64,000 nucleotides of DNA from Porphyridium purpureum (lineage: Eukaryota). This document shows, in pieces, positions 31,925 through 61,170 of the stretch. How positions within the stretch are numbered: position 1 is the first letter of the stretch; every line of letters starts with the position of its first letter. The DNA is taken from assembly GCA_008690995.1 (NCBI GenBank), contig VRMN01000001.1, positions 992,001 to 1,056,000 on the forward strand. Direction: 5' to 3'. The position numbers and the translations under genes were made by a program. The notes beneath the pieces were generated by a model that saw only the letters and a program-made list of their open reading frames with translations, ran no database searches and was not told the origin of the DNA.

Positions 31925-33474
31925 CACTCCTGGCCAAGATGGTTGTCCCAGGTGCAATGTCAAGGTCTGAACTCCAGTTTTATAGTAAAAACGAGCGTTT
32001 TCATATGAAATCAATGTTTATACCTTTTTTTAACATATTTTTGTTCCTTAGGTCAGAGGTAAGCGCGCGCTTTTGCGGGACCCCATGAGGCCATGAAGGG
32101 GTTCAAGACATGTGAAAGAAGACTAACGCATCTACTGCACTCGGGCATACGATCGCGACCAAGTCCAGCAACCGCAAGCATCGGAAACATGGCACCACGG
32201 CTCTCCGACTTCGAGAAAGGCCAGATTGACGCTCTGCACCGGCTCTGTCTGACGCCGCGGGCCATTGCAGCACGTCTTCGTCCGCGACCAGACAAGACCC
32301 GACCATCGTACAAGACTGTGGAGCGATTTCTGAAGAATCGAGGAAGGAAAAGGGTTTCCAAGAAGCCCGGACCGGCACGGACAATATCGCCGAAATTGGA
32401 GCGTCGCCTGATTCGGCACGTCATTACGGATAGGTTGACGTCTGCACAGGCAGTGACGGAGCTGCAGCTTGCGTGCAGTGCGAGAACTGTTCGTCGTATC
32501 CTGCAGAGATCACCAGAGGTTCGTATTATCGCGCAGAGGCGAAAGTTCTTCATTTCGGAAAAGAACCGAGTCAAGCGGCTTGCATTTGCTCGAGAATACG
32601 TCCACAAGCCGCTATCGTTTTGGAAGAATGTCATCTTCTCGGATGAAAAGATCTTTCGGCTGGACGGGCCACACGGGTACAACAAGACTTATCAGCGAAC
32701 GCGAGGCCCTGAGCCCGCGCCAACCATGCGTCGCCATAGTGGCGGAGGATCCGCAATGTTTTGGGGTGCCATGTCGTGGCACGGACTGAGTACGTTGCAT
32801 CGTGTTCAAGGCTCGCTGAATGCCGAGCGATATCGGCAGGTTATGCTGAACGTCATGATGCCCTGGGCACTGGAACTGCCTTGGCGCCTTGATCAGCCGG
32901 ATTGTCCATTCATATTTCAGCAAGATAATGCGCCCGGACATGCAGCGCTGAGCACGCGCGAGCTGTTTGACACGGTCGGAATCGCACTACTTGATTGGCC
33001 AGCGCGGTCGCCGGACTTGAATCCAGTTGAGAATCTGTGGGCGATCGTTTCTCGCCGTGTGCATTGGCAAGGACGCCAGTTTATGCGCCTCGATGACATG
33101 CTTCCAGTTATCTATGGCTGCTGGCGAACGGAAGCGCCAAAGTATGTTGAGGCACTTTTCGAGAGCATGCCCCGTCGCCTGCAAGCTTGCATCGACGCCG
33201 GTGGCCGTCAAACCAAGTACTAGTTTCGTTACTACAGTTAAATCTCTTCTCATAAGCGTGTTTGTCCTCATCAACCTGTTTTATTGTTTTTCTCTTTTTC
33301 GGCACTTCTCACACCTGTTGTTTTGTTCTACGATACCTTTGGACGCCCCTACCCATTTTCCGTGCCGCTGATTCTTTTCGTGCCATCAAAACAGACGACA
33401 ACCTAGTCGAAAAGCCGAGTTATTCACAAAAAACTTCATTTAATCCTGTGGGACAACTAACTTGGCCAGGACTG
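31925..33474 (+). mobile_element. Intact Tc1/mariner-superfamily transposon (1550 bp)
   Basis: 26-bp TIRs at 31925-31950 (CACTCCTGGCCAAGATGGTTGTCCCA) and 33449-33474, with 3 mismatches. TA flanks at 31923-31924 and 33475-33476. Confidence 0.95.
32189..33223 (+). CDS. Tc1-type DD34E transposase
   Basis: N-terminal HTH region, FSDEK, QQDNAPGH and WPARSPDLNPVENLW. 34 residues lie between the second D and E; there are no disruptions. Confidence 0.95.
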   Translation: MAPRLSDFEKGQIDALHRLCLTPRAIAARLRPRPDKTRPSYKTVERFLKNRGRKRVSKKPGPARTISPKLERRLIRHVITDRLTSAQAVTELQLACSARTVRRILQRSPEVRIIAQRRKFFISEKNRVKRLAFAREYVHKPLSFWKNVIFSDEKIFRLDGPHGYNKTYQRTRGPEPAPTMRRHSGGGSAMFWGAMSWHGLSTLHRVQGSLNAERYRQVMLNVMMPWALELPWRLDQPDCPFIFQQDNAPGHAALSTRELFDTVGIALLDWPARSPDLNPVENLWAIVSRRVHWQGRQFMRLDDMLPVIYGCWRTEAPKYVEALFESMPRRLQACIDAGGRQTKY

Positions 33475-54182: not shown

Positions 54183-54572
54183 CGCAGCGTGCCGCACGAC
54201 GAGGTTCCTCTCCTACCTCCCTTTTCCCAGCTGTCTCTGCACTTACTCCCGTCTCCTCACCAAACTTTTTCCCTGCACATACCCCTCCCCCCCTCACGCC
54301 AATTCCCTTCTATCATCAAATGACCCATTCTTCGTACAAAGTACACGTTTCTCTTCTTCCTTCGGGTCCCCGCCGGGAAGCCCATCCGACGGCGCGGGTT
54401 AGATCGAGGGTTGCACATTTCCGCCTTCGCTCCGCGCCAAACCCTCAATCTAACTAACCCTATTCATTCAGGGAAAAAAAAACAAAAACAACTGACCCCA
54501 CGAACCGAAAGCCGAACCGACTGTACCTCCTCATCCCCAAACACCCCTTTGATTTTTGTTGTCCTTCTTCCT

Positions 54573-55369
54573 CTTGGAATTTCTCCCTTTCTGCTTTGTA
54601 ACCGAATCAACAAAACCGGACCGCTTCACCGATAACAGGAACTGGAAACCGCCACACCCCGGAAACTGACAAACCGACGACGAACCGACACACCGAAACG
54701 AACGGAAGGACAAGCAGGACAATCAGAGAAAAGTGGCTAGAAAGGAAGAGAGGACAGAAAATTCAACTTATAGGGGACTACGAGAGGGAGTGGACCGGTC
54801 TTGACAAGTGAAGGGTGATGGAAGGTACGTTTAAACCCCAGCTGCCTTTTTAAAAACACTCCAGACCGATATCCGCTCGCACAACACGCTAGCGTGCCTC
54901 TCCCGCAAATCCAACCCAAGTCTTCCAACGACTGCCTCAATCCAACTAACCAATTCTCTTTTTATTCTATTTGCCCTTACCTCTTCTTCTACCTTGACCT
55001 GGAAATTCCTGGGAACCAGCTTGCCCCTTCGTCCTTTTATACCCTTCGTCCTTGCTCTTTCCAGCAAGGACGGGAGAACAAATTTCTCCAACAGGACGAA
55101 TTTCCACCACAGGTTTTGATTCGTTCCACAACTCGCAACCACAGCCGGCCACGTATCCGGAAAATGGCCGGGAGGGCGCGTCAAGAACGAATCCAGAAGC
55201 TTCGGCCGGCCTTTGACCTTTGCACAAGGCCACACAAAACGACAATGACAAACATTTCGCAGGTCCGAGATCATCACGCTTCTCGAACAATCTTTCATCA
55301 TAGAACTTTCTAGGGTTTTGTACTCAAAACCCTACGGCGTCTCTCGGGGCGGAACCCTAAAATTCCACG
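54573..55369 (-). repeat. 3' LTR
   Basis: Direct repeat of 59537-60333; no differences seen by eye and the ORF-track translations of both copies are identical. 8-bp inverted repeat TGGAATTT/AAATTCCA inset 2 nt from each end. Confidence 0.95.
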
Positions 55370-58300
55370 CTCCTCCTTCCGGTCTGAGGGACGCGTAACT
55401 TCTCCCAGCACTTAATGTGGCCCTCCGGAAATAAGGCCTTGGTCATTAAGTCCGCCACATTTTCGTCCGTCTTCACAAATGCCAGTTTCACAAGTTTCTG
55501 CTTTTCGCACACCTGATGCAACCAGGCCAAATCTGTTGCTCGGGTTATCGCCATATGATGCAACTTTGGCGAGTACCCCATCTCTATTGCTCGCATCACA
55601 GCTTGATTGTCACACATCAAAATCACCGAGAACTCTCCGTCACGTATACTTCGCAAGAAAGACAATGCAGGAAACAACGAGAGTTGCACAGTTTCCTCTA
55701 GGGCGGCCAGCTCCGACTCTGAAGTCGACGAGCTCACGAAACGCTGCTTTCTTGAAGACCAATCCACTAGGTACTTGTAATCTCCAGCAACTAAGTACGT
55801 TGCTCTTCCAGAAGTCGACACACGACTCTCTGGACAACCAGCAAAGTCAGCATCCGTGTATCCAAGAATGTTCACCATTCTGATGCCTTCCTTGAGATTC
55901 CCCAACACGTGATACTCCAATGCTTCCCGAGGTGTTTTCAAATACTGCACGACTCGTACGAGCAGCCTTTCTGCTGCCACATTCCACTTGTCAACGTACC
56001 GGGCAATCATACCGACTGCATACGCAATATCAGGTCGAACCGTTCTGGCGAGCCACATCAGCCTCCCGACGTGTTCTCTTACTTTCAAAGTCTTCCAGAT
56101 GACTTGATAATTCAGAACTTCCTCGCCATCTAGCTTCTCAGATGGTGACTTCACGGCACGCAATACGCGTCTAATATCCTGCTCAAATTCCCGAATGACC
56201 ACATCTTGATACTCTTGATTCGCCAAACTCACGCTCCCATTTTTGAGGGAAATGCTCGTCCCCAGGAATCTCAAGGATCCTCCTTCCGTCAATAGTTCTG
56301 GTGCTTTTTCTATGAGAAACTCTTGTTTCAATTCTTCGATGATTCCTGGGCGTTCCTCCTCTCGACAGGCTAATAGACCATCATCCACGTACAGAGCCAA
56401 CAACGCAACTGACGAACTTGCAGCATTTCTCCGGACGTACACATTCTTTTCACCATGCACGAGCTTCCACTGGAACTTTTGCAATCTCCTCCGAGCATCT
56501 TGTGAGAAATCCGAGCCGCTCCTGGGCAAGCCATACAGCGCCTTTCTCAGCCTGACTACTGTGTCTTTTGAATCACAAATTTCACGCGGTAAGTATGCAA
56601 ACGTAGGTGGCCCAGACAGGTCCGCATGGAGGTATGCCGAGCTGATGTCGAAACTAACAATCTGAAGGCCCAGAATTGCAGCCACAGCTATTATCATTCG
56701 GATAGCTGACAAACCAGCAGGCGTCTCATAATCAAAAATGTCATTCGTCGCAGCTCCATCGGACCCCCATATCCTGTTTCCCCCGGCCACCAAGCGGCAC
56801 TTCACCTTGCGAAATTCTTCCGGCATCTCAGCAAATTTCAGACCGAAAATGAAATGTGTGCGTACGAAACGAGCACCAGGTTGCCTCCGGGCCTCCTCCA
56901 GCGTCAAGGGACTCTCATCCCATACCCCAAATTTCAGCATGGATTTGACTTCTTTTTCCATCGCGGCTCGTCCTTGCTCAGACGCCAACGCCGCTCCAGT
57001 TTTCAGCAAAGTCGTTAAGTTCAACTGTGGGATCGTCACTGGACCACCCGTGCCTGCTGCCCGTTCTTCGTCAACCACTCTCACTTTCAATGCCTCGATC
57101 TCTTTCTCAAGCTCCGCTTCTCTAGCTCTGAGAGCATCGATACGACGATCCAAGTCCTGCACCGCTTCAACCGCGGATGGTTCGTCCACTTCTGGCAACT
57201 CTTCCTGCTGGCTCAGGCTCACCATCTCTCGTTCAATTCCCTTTAAAGGGAACTCATGGGTAAATGCCTTAAAATCCTGAGTGCGAATTACTTTTGGGGT
57301 CTCACTCGTCCAGTCATCCCGAGGAAGCACCAAAATTGCCATCGGATGCTCTCCAACGCCGACGAGAATGCCAACTTTTCCTCGCGGTGCATACTTATTG
57401 TCAGGCTGATCATCTTTGTAGACCACCTTGCACCCGAATGGCAAACTAAGATTTCTCGGCGACCATTTTTCACCATGTCGTAATTCAAACGGCGTCTTTC
57501 CAGACTTCCTGCCCACGTGAAGTCTATTCGTCATGAACGCGAAATGCTGCGCGGCGTGCATGAACCAACGCTTCCCGAGTCCGGCCTGCACAAGATTCGC
57601 ACGGATTCCCTGATTCAGCGTGTGGTGAAACCGCTCCTGTTCAGCATGACTGTTTGGCCTGTACGGAATCCCCACCTCGTGCTTTATGAGGTGTTCACGC
57701 ACCAGTCTCCCCACATCTCCCTTGAACTCATTCCCATCATCCGTTCGCAAAACCTTCGGCCATCCTCTCCCGGCTTGCACACTTTTCCAAGCGTCCGCAA
57801 CCGCCGTGTGGGTTTTCGCACGTAGCCCCGCCAATGTCACCCATCCTGTGGCTCTGTCGATATGCGTCAAAATAAACTTTGAACCATCTACCGACTTCAC
57901 ATTTCGCCCAGGCTCCACCAAGTCAATTCCGACTTCATCATTGAATGACAATGCACTGACATCTTTCTCCAGCCTTCGGGCCGGGCGTCGCTTTATCTTC
58001 GCCACGACACACGTCTCACAGTCTCTTTGCATAGGCATGTGAGTCAACTCGTGTTCCGAAGCAGCCACGCTCTGATTTTTCCCGTCAAGCTCGGGAACCA
58101 CTTCTTCAACATTTTCCAACGTGCATATTTCCTTCCCCTCGGGCCTCGTTTCCATCAGTCCCTTCTGCCAATCAATCTTAGGATTCACCATCTTGAGCCA
58201 TTTCCACCCTAAGATGGCATCCATACGAATGGGACCGATATAAAACTCGACGTTCCCTATCCAGAAACCGAGGTCCACCGCAAGCACAATGGGGCCGTGC

Positions 58301-58521
58301 ACCTTCATTCTCTGTCCTCCCGCAAGCTCGACCATGCATTCATCGCAACTGGACTTTACGCTTGCGTCCAAGAATCGGGACCCCAGGAAATTATGCGACG
58401 CTCCACTGTCAATCAAGAAGTCGATTTTTGAACCACTCACTTTCCCATGTTTGTAGAAGAGCCTTGACCTCGCACCCTCGTGCGCAACACCTTCCACAAC
58501 ACCCATTACAGGAGGCTCCAT
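55357..58521 (-). CDS. pol: Pol polyprotein: protease-integrase-RT-RNase H (probably expressed as Gag-Pol by -1 frameshift)
   Basis: PR LIDSGASHNF; INT HELTH..CETC, VGIDLV, RTDDGNEF, QERF; RT KCRLVAGG, DISSAYL, LRKALYGL, LYVDD; RNase H YTDADFAG, ESEL, CDNQ, NVADLMTK. Confidence 0.95.
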   Translation of the reverse strand: MEPPVMGVVEGVAHEGARSRLFYKHGKVSGSKIDFLIDSGASHNFLGSRFLDASVKSSCDECMVELAGGQRMKVHGPIVLAVDLGFWIGNVEFYIGPIRMDAILGWKWLKMVNPKIDWQKGLMETRPEGKEICTLENVEEVVPELDGKNQSVAASEHELTHMPMQRDCETCVVAKIKRRPARRLEKDVSALSFNDEVGIDLVEPGRNVKSVDGSKFILTHIDRATGWVTLAGLRAKTHTAVADAWKSVQAGRGWPKVLRTDDGNEFKGDVGRLVREHLIKHEVGIPYRPNSHAEQERFHHTLNQGIRANLVQAGLGKRWFMHAAQHFAFMTNRLHVGRKSGKTPFELRHGEKWSPRNLSLPFGCKVVYKDDQPDNKYAPRGKVGILVGVGEHPMAILVLPRDDWTSETPKVIRTQDFKAFTHEFPLKGIEREMVSLSQQEELPEVDEPSAVEAVQDLDRRIDALRAREAELEKEIEALKVRVVDEERAAGTGGPVTIPQLNLTTLLKTGAALASEQGRAAMEKEVKSMLKFGVWDESPLTLEEARRQPGARFVRTHFIFGLKFAEMPEEFRKVKCRLVAGGNRIWGSDGAATNDIFDYETPAGLSAIRMIIAVAAILGLQIVSFDISSAYLHADLSGPPTFAYLPREICDSKDTVVRLRKALYGLPRSGSDFSQDARRRLQKFQWKLVHGEKNVYVRRNAASSSVALLALYVDDGLLACREEERPGIIEELKQEFLIEKAPELLTEGGSLRFLGTSISLKNGSVSLANQEYQDVVIREFEQDIRRVLRAVKSPSEKLDGEEVLNYQVIWKTLKVREHVGRLMWLARTVRPDIAYAVGMIARYVDKWNVAAERLLVRVVQYLKTPREALEYHVLGNLKEGIRMVNILGYTDADFAGCPESRVSTSGRATYLVAGDYKYLVDWSSRKQRFVSSSTSESELAALEETVQLSLFPALSFLRSIRDGEFSVILMCDNQAVMRAIEMGYSPKLHHMAITRATDLAWLHQVCEKQKLVKLAFVKTDENVADLMTKALFPEGHIKCWEKLRVPQTGRRSVEF
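55370..55380 (-). other. Polypurine tract
   Basis: Minus-strand GGAAGGAGGAG directly abuts the 3' LTR. Confidence 0.85.
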
Positions 58522-58569
58522 TCCCCTCGAGATCTCCTCCTGTCTTGGCTCTCGAGGTCTTAGTTTTCC
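58508..58569 (-). promoter_or_regulatory. Putative -1 programmed ribosomal frameshift signal (slippery site + H-type pseudoknot)
   Basis: G_GAA_AAC immediately before the gag stop, a 5-nt spacer, and two perfect 8-bp stems. The pol frame is -1 and open from the slip site. Confidence 0.8.
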
Positions 58570-59507
58570 GGCTCTGGCGGACCACCTGCCAAGCGCTCCT
58601 TCAATTTAGGGCATTTGGGCTTAATGTGTCCACGTTCTCCACAATGGTAACACTTCACTTTGGTCTTGCCAGACTTCCGCTTGTCCATGGCTCCCAAATC
58701 CATTGGTGCGCTACCAGAATGCGACGAGAACGCCCTGCTATGAGTCGATGACGAGTTCTTGATCACTTGACTCATATCTCCTCCGAACTTTGCAACCTGC
58801 TCAGCTGCCAACGCAACTTTCAGTGATTCTTCCAAGGTCCTTGTGTCCTGACGGGCCACCTCAATACGCAGTTTCTCCTTCAAGCCCAGCGTGAAGATGG
58901 TGTTCAGTTCTGCATCTGTCACATCTTCAACTGATAACGCTGTCATCCTGAGATTCTGCTCAAATTCTGCGACCGTCATTTTCCCTTGCTTCAACTGATA
59001 CAGATTGGTGCGCGCTGTCAAATGCGCCTGCGGCGGCTCAAACGCTGTGCGCACGAAGTTTGCGAACGCATCCCATCCGGCCTCTGCAAGGCCCTTTCTC
59101 TGCTCCTCCGGACGAGCTGCCCAAAGCAGCGCTGCGTCCCTCTCGAAAAAGCGACTTGCAACAATCACTTTCTGCGAGTCCAAAGCATCTGCGGGCATGC
59201 AGATATCCAGGTCGCTCTTCATTCGCATCAGCCATTCATTGACAACGAGCTTGTCACGCTGACCATCAAACTTTCTCAAACTGCGCCCAATTAACGCGGC
59301 CATGGCACGATCGTTGTCACCAGACCCAGACGCCACGGTCTGCTGGCGCAACAAAACATGCATCATTTCATGGAGGTTACGATTCGCTTCCTGCACTTGT
59401 GCCATCATCATCTCCTGTCCCGCAATGCGCGCATGCAGCTGATTAGCTGCCTCAATCCATGCCGCATTCTCCTGCGGGACATTCATTTCCATTTCATGGC
59501 TTTCCAT
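58560..59507 (-). CDS. gag: Gag (capsid + CCHC nucleocapsid)
   Basis: KFDG..EWL..W..F..F, LKQG.MTVAEF, FTLGLK, APMDLG, CYHCGERGHIKPKC. First ATG is 59507. Confidence 0.93.
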   Translation of the reverse strand: MESHEMEMNVPQENAAWIEAANQLHARIAGQEMMMAQVQEANRNLHEMMHVLLRQQTVASGSGDNDRAMAALIGRSLRKFDGQRDKLVVNEWLMRMKSDLDICMPADALDSQKVIVASRFFERDAALLWAARPEEQRKGLAEAGWDAFANFVRTAFEPPQAHLTARTNLYQLKQGKMTVAEFEQNLRMTALSVEDVTDAELNTIFTLGLKEKLRIEVARQDTRTLEESLKVALAAEQVAKFGGDMSQVIKNSSSTHSRAFSSHSGSAPMDLGAMDKRKSGKTKVKCYHCGERGHIKPKCPKLKERLAGGPPEPEN

Positions 59508-59518
59508 TTTCTCCAAAC

Positions 59519-59536
59519 AACCGGGCGATGATACCA
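59519..59536 (-). other. Primer-binding site, probably for initiator tRNA-Met
   Basis: TGGTATCATCGCCCGGTT abuts the 5' LTR and resembles the TGGTATCAGAGC-type iMet PBS. Confidence 0.85.
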
Positions 59537-60333
59537 CTTGGAATTTCTCCCTTTCTGCTTTGTAACCGAATCAACAAAACCGGACCGCTTCACCGATAAC
59601 AGGAACTGGAAACCGCCACACCCCGGAAACTGACAAACCGACGACGAACCGACACACCGAAACGAACGGAAGGACAAGCAGGACAATCAGAGAAAAGTGG
59701 CTAGAAAGGAAGAGAGGACAGAAAATTCAACTTATAGGGGACTACGAGAGGGAGTGGACCGGTCTTGACAAGTGAAGGGTGATGGAAGGTACGTTTAAAC
59801 CCCAGCTGCCTTTTTAAAAACACTCCAGACCGATATCCGCTCGCACAACACGCTAGCGTGCCTCTCCCGCAAATCCAACCCAAGTCTTCCAACGACTGCC
59901 TCAATCCAACTAACCAATTCTCTTTTTATTCTATTTGCCCTTACCTCTTCTTCTACCTTGACCTGGAAATTCCTGGGAACCAGCTTGCCCCTTCGTCCTT
60001 TTATACCCTTCGTCCTTGCTCTTTCCAGCAAGGACGGGAGAACAAATTTCTCCAACAGGACGAATTTCCACCACAGGTTTTGATTCGTTCCACAACTCGC
60101 AACCACAGCCGGCCACGTATCCGGAAAATGGCCGGGAGGGCGCGTCAAGAACGAATCCAGAAGCTTCGGCCGGCCTTTGACCTTTGCACAAGGCCACACA
60201 AAACGACAATGACAAACATTTCGCAGGTCCGAGATCATCACGCTTCTCGAACAATCTTTCATCATAGAACTTTCTAGGGTTTTGTACTCAAAACCCTACG
60301 GCGTCTCTCGGGGCGGAACCCTAAAATTCCACG
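59537..60333 (-). repeat. 5' LTR
   Basis: Direct repeat of 54573-55369; contains a minus-strand TATAAAA at about 59999-60005. Confidence 0.95.
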
Positions 60334-61170
60334 TTCCTCCTCCCCTTTGCGACTTCCCTCCTATCGTTGTACTTGCATGCTATAGAAACAGTGTTATTTA
60401 TCGATACATGCTGGCCGAACTTGCGAACATGGTCATACCTAGTAAACCGGTGGAGTTGTATTATCACGACTTACTCTTCGAGGCCCCTTTTCGTAGTGTT
60501 TCAATTACGCAAGCTAGCCCGCTTATAGTGTTTTTTTGGTTTGAGGGGAGCGACGTTTTACTGGAGTGCCGCATTTTCTTTCTGTGTTTTGTTCTTAGGG
60601 TATTGCCCTTCCTATTAAAACAGGTTGTTCAGATATGGAAAAGATGAAGGGGAAAAAATGGTAAACAAGGTGAATGCAAGTAGAAGAAAAATAAGAGAGG
60701 AAGAGCGGGGAGGGGGCGGGGAAAAGAGAGGGGAGTGGGGAGGGGGAAGGGAAGGTGAAGGGTGCACAACGTGAAGAGGAAGGGTGAGTACGTGCTGTTT
60801 GGTTAAAGTGTGTGGCGTGTGGGTTGCGCGTGGTACGAGCAAATGGACAGAGCATGCGAGTGAGTTTGTGTAAGGGGAGGGCGGCAGCTGGGAAACTCAG
60901 GGACTAGTGAAACGAAGAAACCGGGAGGGAAGGGGCGTGCACGGTTTCGGGCGTCGACGTTTCGACGAAGGAAGGGCGGCGTTTCGTGAGAGGGGCGTTG
61001 TCCACTTTGGGCGTGGGTACGAGGTCTTGACGGCGTTGGCACGGAGCAAAAGATACGTGCGCGTTTCGTTGAACGTGTTGGTCGTGCGTTGTGCTGTTCG
61101 CCTCCCTTAACGTCCATGCGTTTTCGGACGCGCGTGGGTCGTGGAGGCGCGCGGTGAGGTTTCGAGCATC

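Follow-up and report, generated by a model that had tools for sequence, protein, structure and literature searches.

Retrotransposons of the Ty1/copia and of the Ty3/gypsy superfamily are classified by their reverse transcriptase (RT) and by the order of their domains, and are regarded as separate lines. A long terminal repeat (LTR) retrotransposon of the red alga Porphyridium purpureum, located at positions 54573-60333 (minus strand, 5,761 bp) of a 64,000-nucleotide stretch of DNA (the window), raises the question whether one element can be made of parts from both lines and, if so, how these parts came together. An earlier note on this DNA had described a gypsy-derived structural half joined to copia-derived enzymes, and this division was upheld when the domains were analysed separately by profiles and trees. 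The locus is an intact element with a Ty3/gypsy-type Gag and protease (PR) and a Ty1/copia-type integrase (INT), RT and RNase H (RH), and we consider it quite probable that it arose by an old recombination replacing the Gag-PR part of a divergent copia-side lineage. The element lacks a defining character of each superfamily: its protease motif is ILG, not the LLS of copia, and it has neither the RVT_1-type RT nor the INT behind RNase H that characterize Ty3/gypsy. Otherwise it is an ordinary LTR retrotransposon.

Affinities of the two halves of the element

The motifs quoted in the earlier note were all found on the minus strand: APMDLG (58709-58692) and a single CCHC knuckle (58652-58611) in Gag, FLIDSGASHNFL (58419-58384) and DAILGWKWLKMVNPKIDW (58221-58168) in the protease, and KCRLVAGG (56802), DISSAYL (56649), LRKALYGL (56550), YVDD (56391), RPDIAYAVG (56037) and YTDADFAG (55860) in RT and RNase H. 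The domains follow each other as PR-INT-RT-RH, in agreement with the order that had been claimed for the enzymes. The open reading frames (ORFs) are intact, again as claimed, gag having 315 aa and pol 1,082 codons. The two are in separate frames with an overlap of 46 nt, and pol is -1 relative to gag. The junction of the two halves, which had been placed at ~58150-58050, agrees with the linker between PR and INT (58167-58054). Contigs of three other runs span this junction: 54573-59563 in run X2 with three differences, 54925-59918 in X11 with eight, and 57712-58707 in X1 with none, although X1 may be source data. There was no clear step in GC or third-position GC (GC3) at the junction (GC3 of gag 0.59, PR 0.62, INT 0.55, RT 0.51, RH 0.55).

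Further copies with the same join, which the earlier note had suggested looking for, exist in number. In the 90% cluster of the element's Pol (family A) there are 16 sequences, and in that of family B, a sister family with 65-69% identity, 17; proteins identical or nearly so to those of the element bear the source label P. purpureum. Family C (P0087), 34% identical in RT-RH, has the same front of Retrotrans_gag, Ty3_capsid and Asp_protease_2. A Gag-PR-INT profile was searched against 1.84 billion representative proteins and the best 150 matches were used. Among these, P0129, P0130, P0132, P0134, P0142 and P0139/P0280, all labelled P. purpureum, have a gypsy-type Gag and/or protease followed by an integrase of the hybrid type, and the Gag-PR/INT join is thereby present in families less than 50% identical. 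Among the matches listed were also P0138 (labelled P. purpureum), with the Gag-protease part, and P0137 (a JGI record), P0135 and P0136. The distance between the ILG motif of PR and the zinc finger of INT is 20-61 residues in the seven families measured. Since families only 34% identical in RT-RH share it, the gypsy/copia layout is old and common to several families. Recent transposition, which the earlier note had deduced from the matching LTRs, is likely for the insertion; what the identity of the LTRs dates is the latest insertion and not the recombination, and the fusion itself is older. The spanning contigs and the many copies and families bear out that the fusion is not a dead one.

The enzymes belong to the copia side. 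Pol matched RVT_2 in Pfam (1.7e-18), and INT, RT and RH scored 136, 163 and 126 bits with profiles of a lineage characterized by a compact integrase zinc finger (compact lineage), 84, 82 and 67 bits with those of canonical copia, and 60, 0 and 0 bits with those of gypsy. The short zinc finger, H-x3-4-H-x6-7-C-x2-C, was found in 9/9 hybrids and 13/13 compact-lineage proteins, and in none of the 18 canonical copia proteins examined; that of the element, H-x3-H-x6-C-x2-C, is unusually short, a feature absent from the earlier note. Trees of INT+RT+RH split the copia side from gypsy at 100/100. When rooted with gypsy, they placed the compact lineage as sister to canonical copia with support of 95/95 (LG+G4, 34 rows) and 95/93 (mixture model, 22 rows); in the mixture-model tree, which omits 12 rows, the hybrids were nested within the compact lineage and grouped with two LLS elements (95/96). 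Of the copia origin proposed for the enzymes the side was thus right, but the source is a divergent copia-side lineage and not canonical Tnt1/copia-like elements. In this lineage the non-hybrid Gags do not resemble gypsy, and 12 of the 13 proteases placed in the tree have an LLS-type motif. As the hybrids nest beside LLS elements in the Pol trees, the simplest reading is an ancestor with an LLS protease, which was replaced in the hybrids.

According to Llorens et al. (PMC2774666), LLS is characteristic of the proteases of Ty1/copia, very few of which depart from it, whereas ILG is found in the others. All 12 hybrid proteases scored highest with a gypsy profile constructed without them, and the protease of the element reached 71 bits with the gypsy profile, 21 with that of canonical copia and 8 with that of the compact lineage. 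A quick protease tree of 76 rows, which excludes P0135 (motif not found), separated 12 hybrid and 21 gypsy proteases from 30 copia and 13 compact-lineage ones (SH-aLRT 100). The picture was similar for Gag. Pfam gave Retrotrans_gag (4.6e-9), Ty3_capsid (1.3e-8) and zf-CCHC, all exceeding the cut-off, and listed neither the copia Gag (PF14223) nor the copia protease (PF22936) at E<=0.1. The Gag of the element scored 106 bits with the gypsy profile and below 0 with the copia profile; among the hybrid Gags 8/11 scored above 100 bits with the gypsy profile and the remaining three 16-38 bits. The motif PM[DE]L was present in 10/11 hybrid, 9/24 gypsy, 0/36 copia and 0/9 compact-lineage proteins. By sequence, Gag and protease group with Ty3/gypsy.

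Outside the protein collection few relatives were seen. Of 27 pattern matches among viral contigs none was confirmed, and hybrid Gag queries gave no match in 80 metagenome loci kept from 116; a protease query gave one match there (L006, 29 bits). Only L001 of the 80 loci was close, with 135 bits in INT and 107 bits in RT. At L001:608-6588 (+), an ORF has Gag and protease followed by RT thumb/RNase H and integrase, with the RT palm coming after these, so that the domain order looks permuted or the contig rearranged.

Between the integrase tail and RT, P0066 (aa 797-846), P0087 and P0130, of families B, C and D, have a Myb/SANT-like segment, which could be a targeting module; the Pfam match to Myb_DNA-binding in P0066 (7.7e-5) was below the cut-off, and P0087 and P0130 are similar by pattern. 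Family A has a coiled-coil-like stretch in its place.

Origin of the Gag-protease module

Among the matches listed, the best-scoring Gag-PR match with a gypsy RT was P0146, which is labelled P. purpureum and represents a Ty3/gypsy element with all its parts. The capsid and protease of nine hybrids group with P0146 (97/96), and the Pol of P0146 is within a gypsy clade (96/99). Forcing the Pol clade of P0146 on the Gag-PR tree was rejected in approximately unbiased (AU) tests (p-AU 0.044 and 0.020). P0146 and 7/10 hybrid Gags have an insert of 17-33 residues in the capsid, where 22 other gypsy rows have 5-8 residues. Identity between the element and P0146 is 28% in the capsid and 33% in the protease, and 16% in INT, 13% in RT and 21% in RH. 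Long matches of the Gag-PR part that include an RT have a gypsy RT, except for the hybrids, a few multi-element fusions and Gag-only copia matches. Taken together, these results well support an exchange, in either direction and once or several times, between the gypsy lineage of P0146 and the hybrids, and the P0146 lineage is the likely donor of Gag-protease. As to the number of events, family E stood apart from families A-D in the ingroup tree, which omits seven rows, and joined them weakly (89/61) when the outgroup was included; a single group of hybrids in Pol was not rejected (AU p 0.278). Gag and protease were deemed too heterogeneous to align in PMC6317226.

Several observations weigh against the reading preferred here. 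Both reference sets lean toward the result because they were retrieved with the hybrids' own domains, those of the compact lineage with the INT and those of gypsy with the Gag-PR profile. The profile used for copia Gags is weak, being heterogeneous, the best sequence match of Gag in the PDB is the Copia virus-like particle protein (knuckle region, E 2.6e-4), and the Pfam matches of the protease part of Pol, Asp_protease_2 (3e-4) and gag-asp_proteas (6e-4), are both below the cut-offs. The Gags of family A, family B and P0047 are without the capsid insert (6-7 residues). The two rejecting AU tests are marginal, post hoc to the trees and two of seven AU tests run, and a third rejecting test (p 0.017) used a group that was no Pol clade. 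Gag alone is not diagnostic, because P0163, P0165, P0243 and P0269 are canonical copia elements, with a Pol_BBD protease and a long zinc finger, that have a Retrotrans_gag/Ty3-like Gag. These four are a second, Gag-only kind of mixed element, and the three that were placed in the capsid tree formed a clade of their own (99/92), apart from the Porphyridium hybrids. (P0163 has in addition a chromodomain between INT and RT.) Structure prediction did not separate the superfamilies either. A capsid model made from the single sequence was poor (predicted local distance difference test, pLDDT, 46) and was not used; that built on an alignment of gypsy-like Gags reached pLDDT 90 and, as a prediction, confirmed a capsid. 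Foldseek ranked dArc1, Ty3 and PEG10 at the top for this model, derived as it was from gypsy-like Gags. In VIA-align, the C-terminal domain of PEG10 gave Z 13.7 (root-mean-square deviation, rmsd, 2.2; 84 aligned) and the Copia capsid Z 12.0 (rmsd 5.1; 153 aligned). The predicted fold fits PEG10, Copia, dArc and Ty3 about equally.

Four further results would suit an origin without recombination, in which the hybrids are an early Ty1/copia branch that retained an ancestral Ty3-like Gag and ILG protease, LLS having arisen later in other copia elements. According to PMC2774666, all proteases other than those of copia show ILG. A Pol tree with the hybrids branching first (LLS elements monophyletic) was 12.5 log units worse and was not rejected (p-AU 0.154), nor was a split between all hybrids and all gypsy on capsid (p 0.138) or capsid+protease (p 0.126). 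A quick RT-only tree, with two gypsy rows and without 6/8 of those intended, had its root beside hybrid family E. Yet the hybrids were nested among LLS elements in both concatenated Pol trees, and retention would imply a short zinc finger that was ancestral and was later lengthened again in canonical copia. It would also make P0146 itself a recombinant: the Gag-PR of the hybrids is closest to this gypsy element of the same genome (capsid identity <=40-44% where RT is 17%), the capsid insert is shared, and the Pol-based position of P0146 was rejected for Gag-PR (see above). On balance, we regard retention as improbable.

A foreign Gag-protease taken from a source other than Ty3/gypsy, or a gypsy likeness produced by convergence of a few motifs, deserves very little credence. 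The identities to P0146 (28-33%) are low, the ESM Atlas neighbours of Gag-PR, which are leads only, scored below 0.9 and include some non-gypsy retropepsin clusters, and the trees are without Bel/Pao, caulimovirus and Ddi1 references; however, the resemblance extends beyond motifs over the entire capsid and protease, long Gag-PR matches with an RT mostly have that of gypsy, and the shared insert and the 97/96 clade connect the module to a true gypsy element. Finally, an assembly chimera can practically be dismissed, and so can a dead fusion that joined two nested elements only once. PR and INT are in one open frame, between identical LTRs and with a target duplication, the junction is spanned in three other runs, and the same join recurs in the 16 and 17 cluster members and in further families less than 50% identical. 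Such artefacts do occur, as the protein collection contains five 'mixed' models in which a gypsy and a copia element next to each other are run together, and a scrambled model of the element's own family (P0005).

According to the recombination that we favour, the Gag-protease of the copia-side lineage would have been swapped for a module from a gypsy lineage in the same alga. Templates may have been switched between RNAs packaged together, or one element may have inserted into another with subsequent loss of sequence by deletion; the break would lie in the linker that separates PR from INT. The hybrid may have survived this exchange as Gag moved with the protease that cleaves it, and INT-RT-RH as a unit; because the modules moved together, only the cleavage sites in Pol and RNA packaging would have had to adapt.

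LTR ends, expression and surroundings

The limits given in the earlier note proved exact, and its matching LTRs are 797 bp long without a mismatch (Table 1). As the two LTRs are identical, the insertion is likely recent. Each LTR consists of a 793-bp TG...CA core with an 8-bp perfect terminal inverted repeat and two additional bases at each end. It contains TATAAA at nt 329 and AATAAA at nt 404. The pattern of the primer-binding site is compatible with the 3' end of an initiator-type tRNA-Met, the putative primer. A search of the window found no tRNA gene and no further LTR copy.

Table 1. Features of the hybrid retrotransposon from its 5' to its 3' end, with the flanking target duplication
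Feature	Position	Strand	Remarks
Target-site duplication, right copy TTCCT	60334..60338	.	5-bp repeat for ends 54573/60333
5' LTR, 797 bp	59537..60333	-	CG-TGGAATTT ... AAATTCCA-AG
Primer-binding site TGGTATCATCGCCCGGTT	59519..59536	-	adjoins 5' LTR directly
gag, 315 aa; capsid of Ty3/gypsy type, with PMDLG and a single CCHC knuckle	58560..59507	-	Pfam, profiles, trees
Candidate -1 frameshift heptamer G_GAA_AAC	58563..58569	-	immediately 5' of gag stop
pol frame of 1,082 codons between stops, order PR-INT-RT-RH	55357..58605	-	ORF reading
Aspartic protease, Ty3/gypsy (ILG) type	58168..58470	-	Pfam, profiles, tree
Linker with presumed gypsy/copia junction	58054..58167	-	spanned by contigs of runs X1, X2, X11
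Integrase with compact H-x3-H-x6-C-x2-C zinc finger, a D-x60-D-x34-E core and a weak SH3-like tail	57226..58053	-
Coiled-coil-like segment between INT and RT	57085..57162	-	read from sequence
Reverse transcriptase, RVT_2 (copia) type	56182..56970	-	Pfam, profiles
RNase H, copia type	55396..55872	-	profiles
Polypurine tract GGAAGGAGGAG	55370..55380	-	abuts 3' LTR
3' LTR, 797 bp	54573..55369	-	identical to 5' LTR
Target-site duplication, left copy TTCCT	54568..54572	.

The TG and CA ends do not adjoin the target duplication but lie 2 bp inside it, both LTRs reading CG-TG...CA-AG, which had escaped the earlier note. The 5-bp duplication TTCCT flanks the CG...AG form, and there is none for the TG...CA core (54575/60331). 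Among 11 of the 17 loose contig ends, nine were at LTR ends, all nine with the extra bases, and the LTR-end junctions in other contigs were at 54571-54573, 59534 and 60334-60336. If the left end were 54574, a 6-bp duplication, TTCCTC, would be possible; 54573 is preferred, as two further junctions fall exactly on it and the X2 contig terminates at this very position. The depth of the host flank was 0 in three runs, which proves nothing about an empty site.

Given that the duplication flanks CG...AG and that the nine listed junctions keep the extra bases, the sequence suggests that the cDNA integrated at full length, without trimming of its terminal bases. The copia element Tnt1 trims its ends. 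For the Ty1 integrase, joining of blunt cDNA ends with a terminal CA and a 5-bp duplication are described (PMC2939329), and for HIV-1 integration of trimmed ends only (PMC11054761). The non-canonical LTR ends treated in PMC5659011 are changes of TG or CA itself, with no offset. Offset ends offer a direct way to ask whether an integrase works without a terminal CA, and they would conceal such elements from finders that require TG...CA.

The offset may be a consequence of the chimeric origin. As a bolder possibility, to which we give distinctly less weight than to the exchange of Gag-PR, the copia-side lineage may have captured, perhaps repeatedly, a whole gypsy front (LTR ends, primer site, gag and protease) from a resident element and then radiated into many mobile families; its copia-type integrase would insert gypsy-style cDNA ends untrimmed, CG...AG being the scar of the merger. 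If this were true, the divide between gypsy and copia would be no bar to the exchange of Gag-protease and INT-RT-RH, each of which could move freely as a module.

Gag-Pol is likely made by -1 frameshifting, as G_GAA_AAC precedes the gag stop and three related Gags (P0047, P0046 and P0068) likewise terminate in E-N-stop. GGA is tolerated at such slippery sites. A point against is that a stimulatory hairpin 3' of the heptamer found no support (z -0.72, 42/200 shuffles equally stable). The public Gag-Pol models of three Porphyridium families (P0004/P0066, P0280 and P0146) skip the zinc knuckle, which is present in the separate Gags P0068, P0279 and P0288. Since P0068 has the knuckle, these models probably contain introns introduced by gene modelling to bridge a frameshift; the alternative is a real splice skipping the knuckle. 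The idea that family B has a single ORF without knuckle was dropped, P0068 being its separate Gag with knuckle. At the other end (55357-55380), the pol frame continues across the polypurine tract and closes 13 nt within the 3' LTR, and family B Pol terminates in a peptide similar to that of family A.

In the predicted life cycle the 5' LTR would drive transcription, Gag would be translated directly, and a Gag-Pol of ~1,380 aa would result from the -1 frameshift immediately 5' of the gag stop. An initiator-type tRNA-Met would serve as primer, and the blunt, full-length cDNA would be integrated with its two terminal bases kept, so that the ends are CG...AG and the target duplication has 5 bp. 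A contig of RNA run X19, covering 54593-55009 (LTR nt 361-777), had a depth of 2,754, compared with 7-114 within the element, and started 32 nt past the start of TATAAA. Contigs show neither starts nor levels, and this is a weak hint to a transcription start.

The element sits between two divergent genes (54182 minus; 61171 plus), 390 bp upstream of a ribosomal protein L7Ae gene and oriented toward it. The other neighbour has, as judged by eye, a PHD-like Cys pattern. Farther away, an intact ORF of 376 aa at 32093-33223 (+) resembles by eye a Tc1/mariner transposase.

Comparison with known elements

In the full-text literature searched, which covers few subscription journals, neither an element of copia order bearing a gypsy-type Gag and protease nor these Porphyridium families were described, and no published name for the compact-zinc-finger lineage was found. 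The accessible parts of PMC5445492, PMC8321522, PMC2806351, PMC5718144, PMC11453091 and PMC5890265 contain nothing on such hybrids, and a supposed link to a named Symbiodinium LTR family bearing a DNA methyltransferase (DNMT) was not borne out by the last of these. A review (PMC6894440) regards recombination between very distant elements as rare and mentions a handful of cases. As far as PMC6317226 describes it, reference databases omit Gag and protease from trees, elements with chimeric signs were removed, and recombination was reported only among copia lineages. For these reasons such databases would list a hybrid lineage under plain copia, and the element may be catalogued as such in Repbase, GyDB or REXdb, which were outside the search. 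That the particle-building and the DNA-copying half can be exchanged across superfamilies and remain functional is what gives the case its interest, with several families, recent insertion and a likely donor in the same small algal genome.

Gmr1 (Goodwin and Poulter 2002; cited via PMC2774666 and PMC3587641) resembles the element in having gypsy-type parts with INT before RT. As described there, it is a gypsy element with a relocated INT, whereas in the present element INT, RT and RH are themselves of copia type, with 0 bits on the gypsy RT and RH profiles. Among red algae, copia-order elements include PyRE10G of Porphyra yezoensis and the GalEa-like CoPorcru1/2 of Porphyridium cruentum (PMC3587641). 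PyRE10G has, according to the title of Peddigari 2008, a gypsy-like integrase; here it is Gag and protease that are out of place. CoRex1 of the GalEa clade, the one element described in this respect, has a long zinc finger, HX4HX30CX2C (PMC3587641), in contrast to H-x3-H-x6-C-x2-C. The tree set is without labelled GalEa or CoDi sequences, and the element is set apart from GalEa, CoPorcru and PyRE10G by descriptions only.

With Ty1/copia, for example Tnt1-like and Drosophila copia-like elements, it has in common the PR-INT-RT-RH order, the RVT_2 RT and the copia-type RNase H, and with Ty1 the 5-bp target duplication (PMC2939329). It differs from them in the ILG instead of LLS protease, the Ty3-type Gag with PMDL, the short zinc finger and the CG...AG ends, and its RT-RH is only 25-30% identical to canonical copia. 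Closest in INT, RT and RH is the compact lineage (P0157, P0294, P0141, P0156 and others from metagenomes and transcriptomes, and P0089 from Symbiodinium natans), which shares the short zinc finger (RT 37% identical to P0157) but has an LLS-type protease and a Gag unlike gypsy. The front half resembles that of P0146, annotated at its source as 'Transposon Ty3-I Gag-Pol polyprotein', in the capsid, PM[DE]LG, a single knuckle, DSGASHNFL and DAILG..WL...NP.IDW in the protease, and a separate Gag ORF (P0288). P0146 differs in its RVT_1 RT, its gypsy RNase H and the position of INT after RH. The hybrid and P0146 thus form a natural pair for studying the processing of copia enzymes by a gypsy protease, and RNA packaging.

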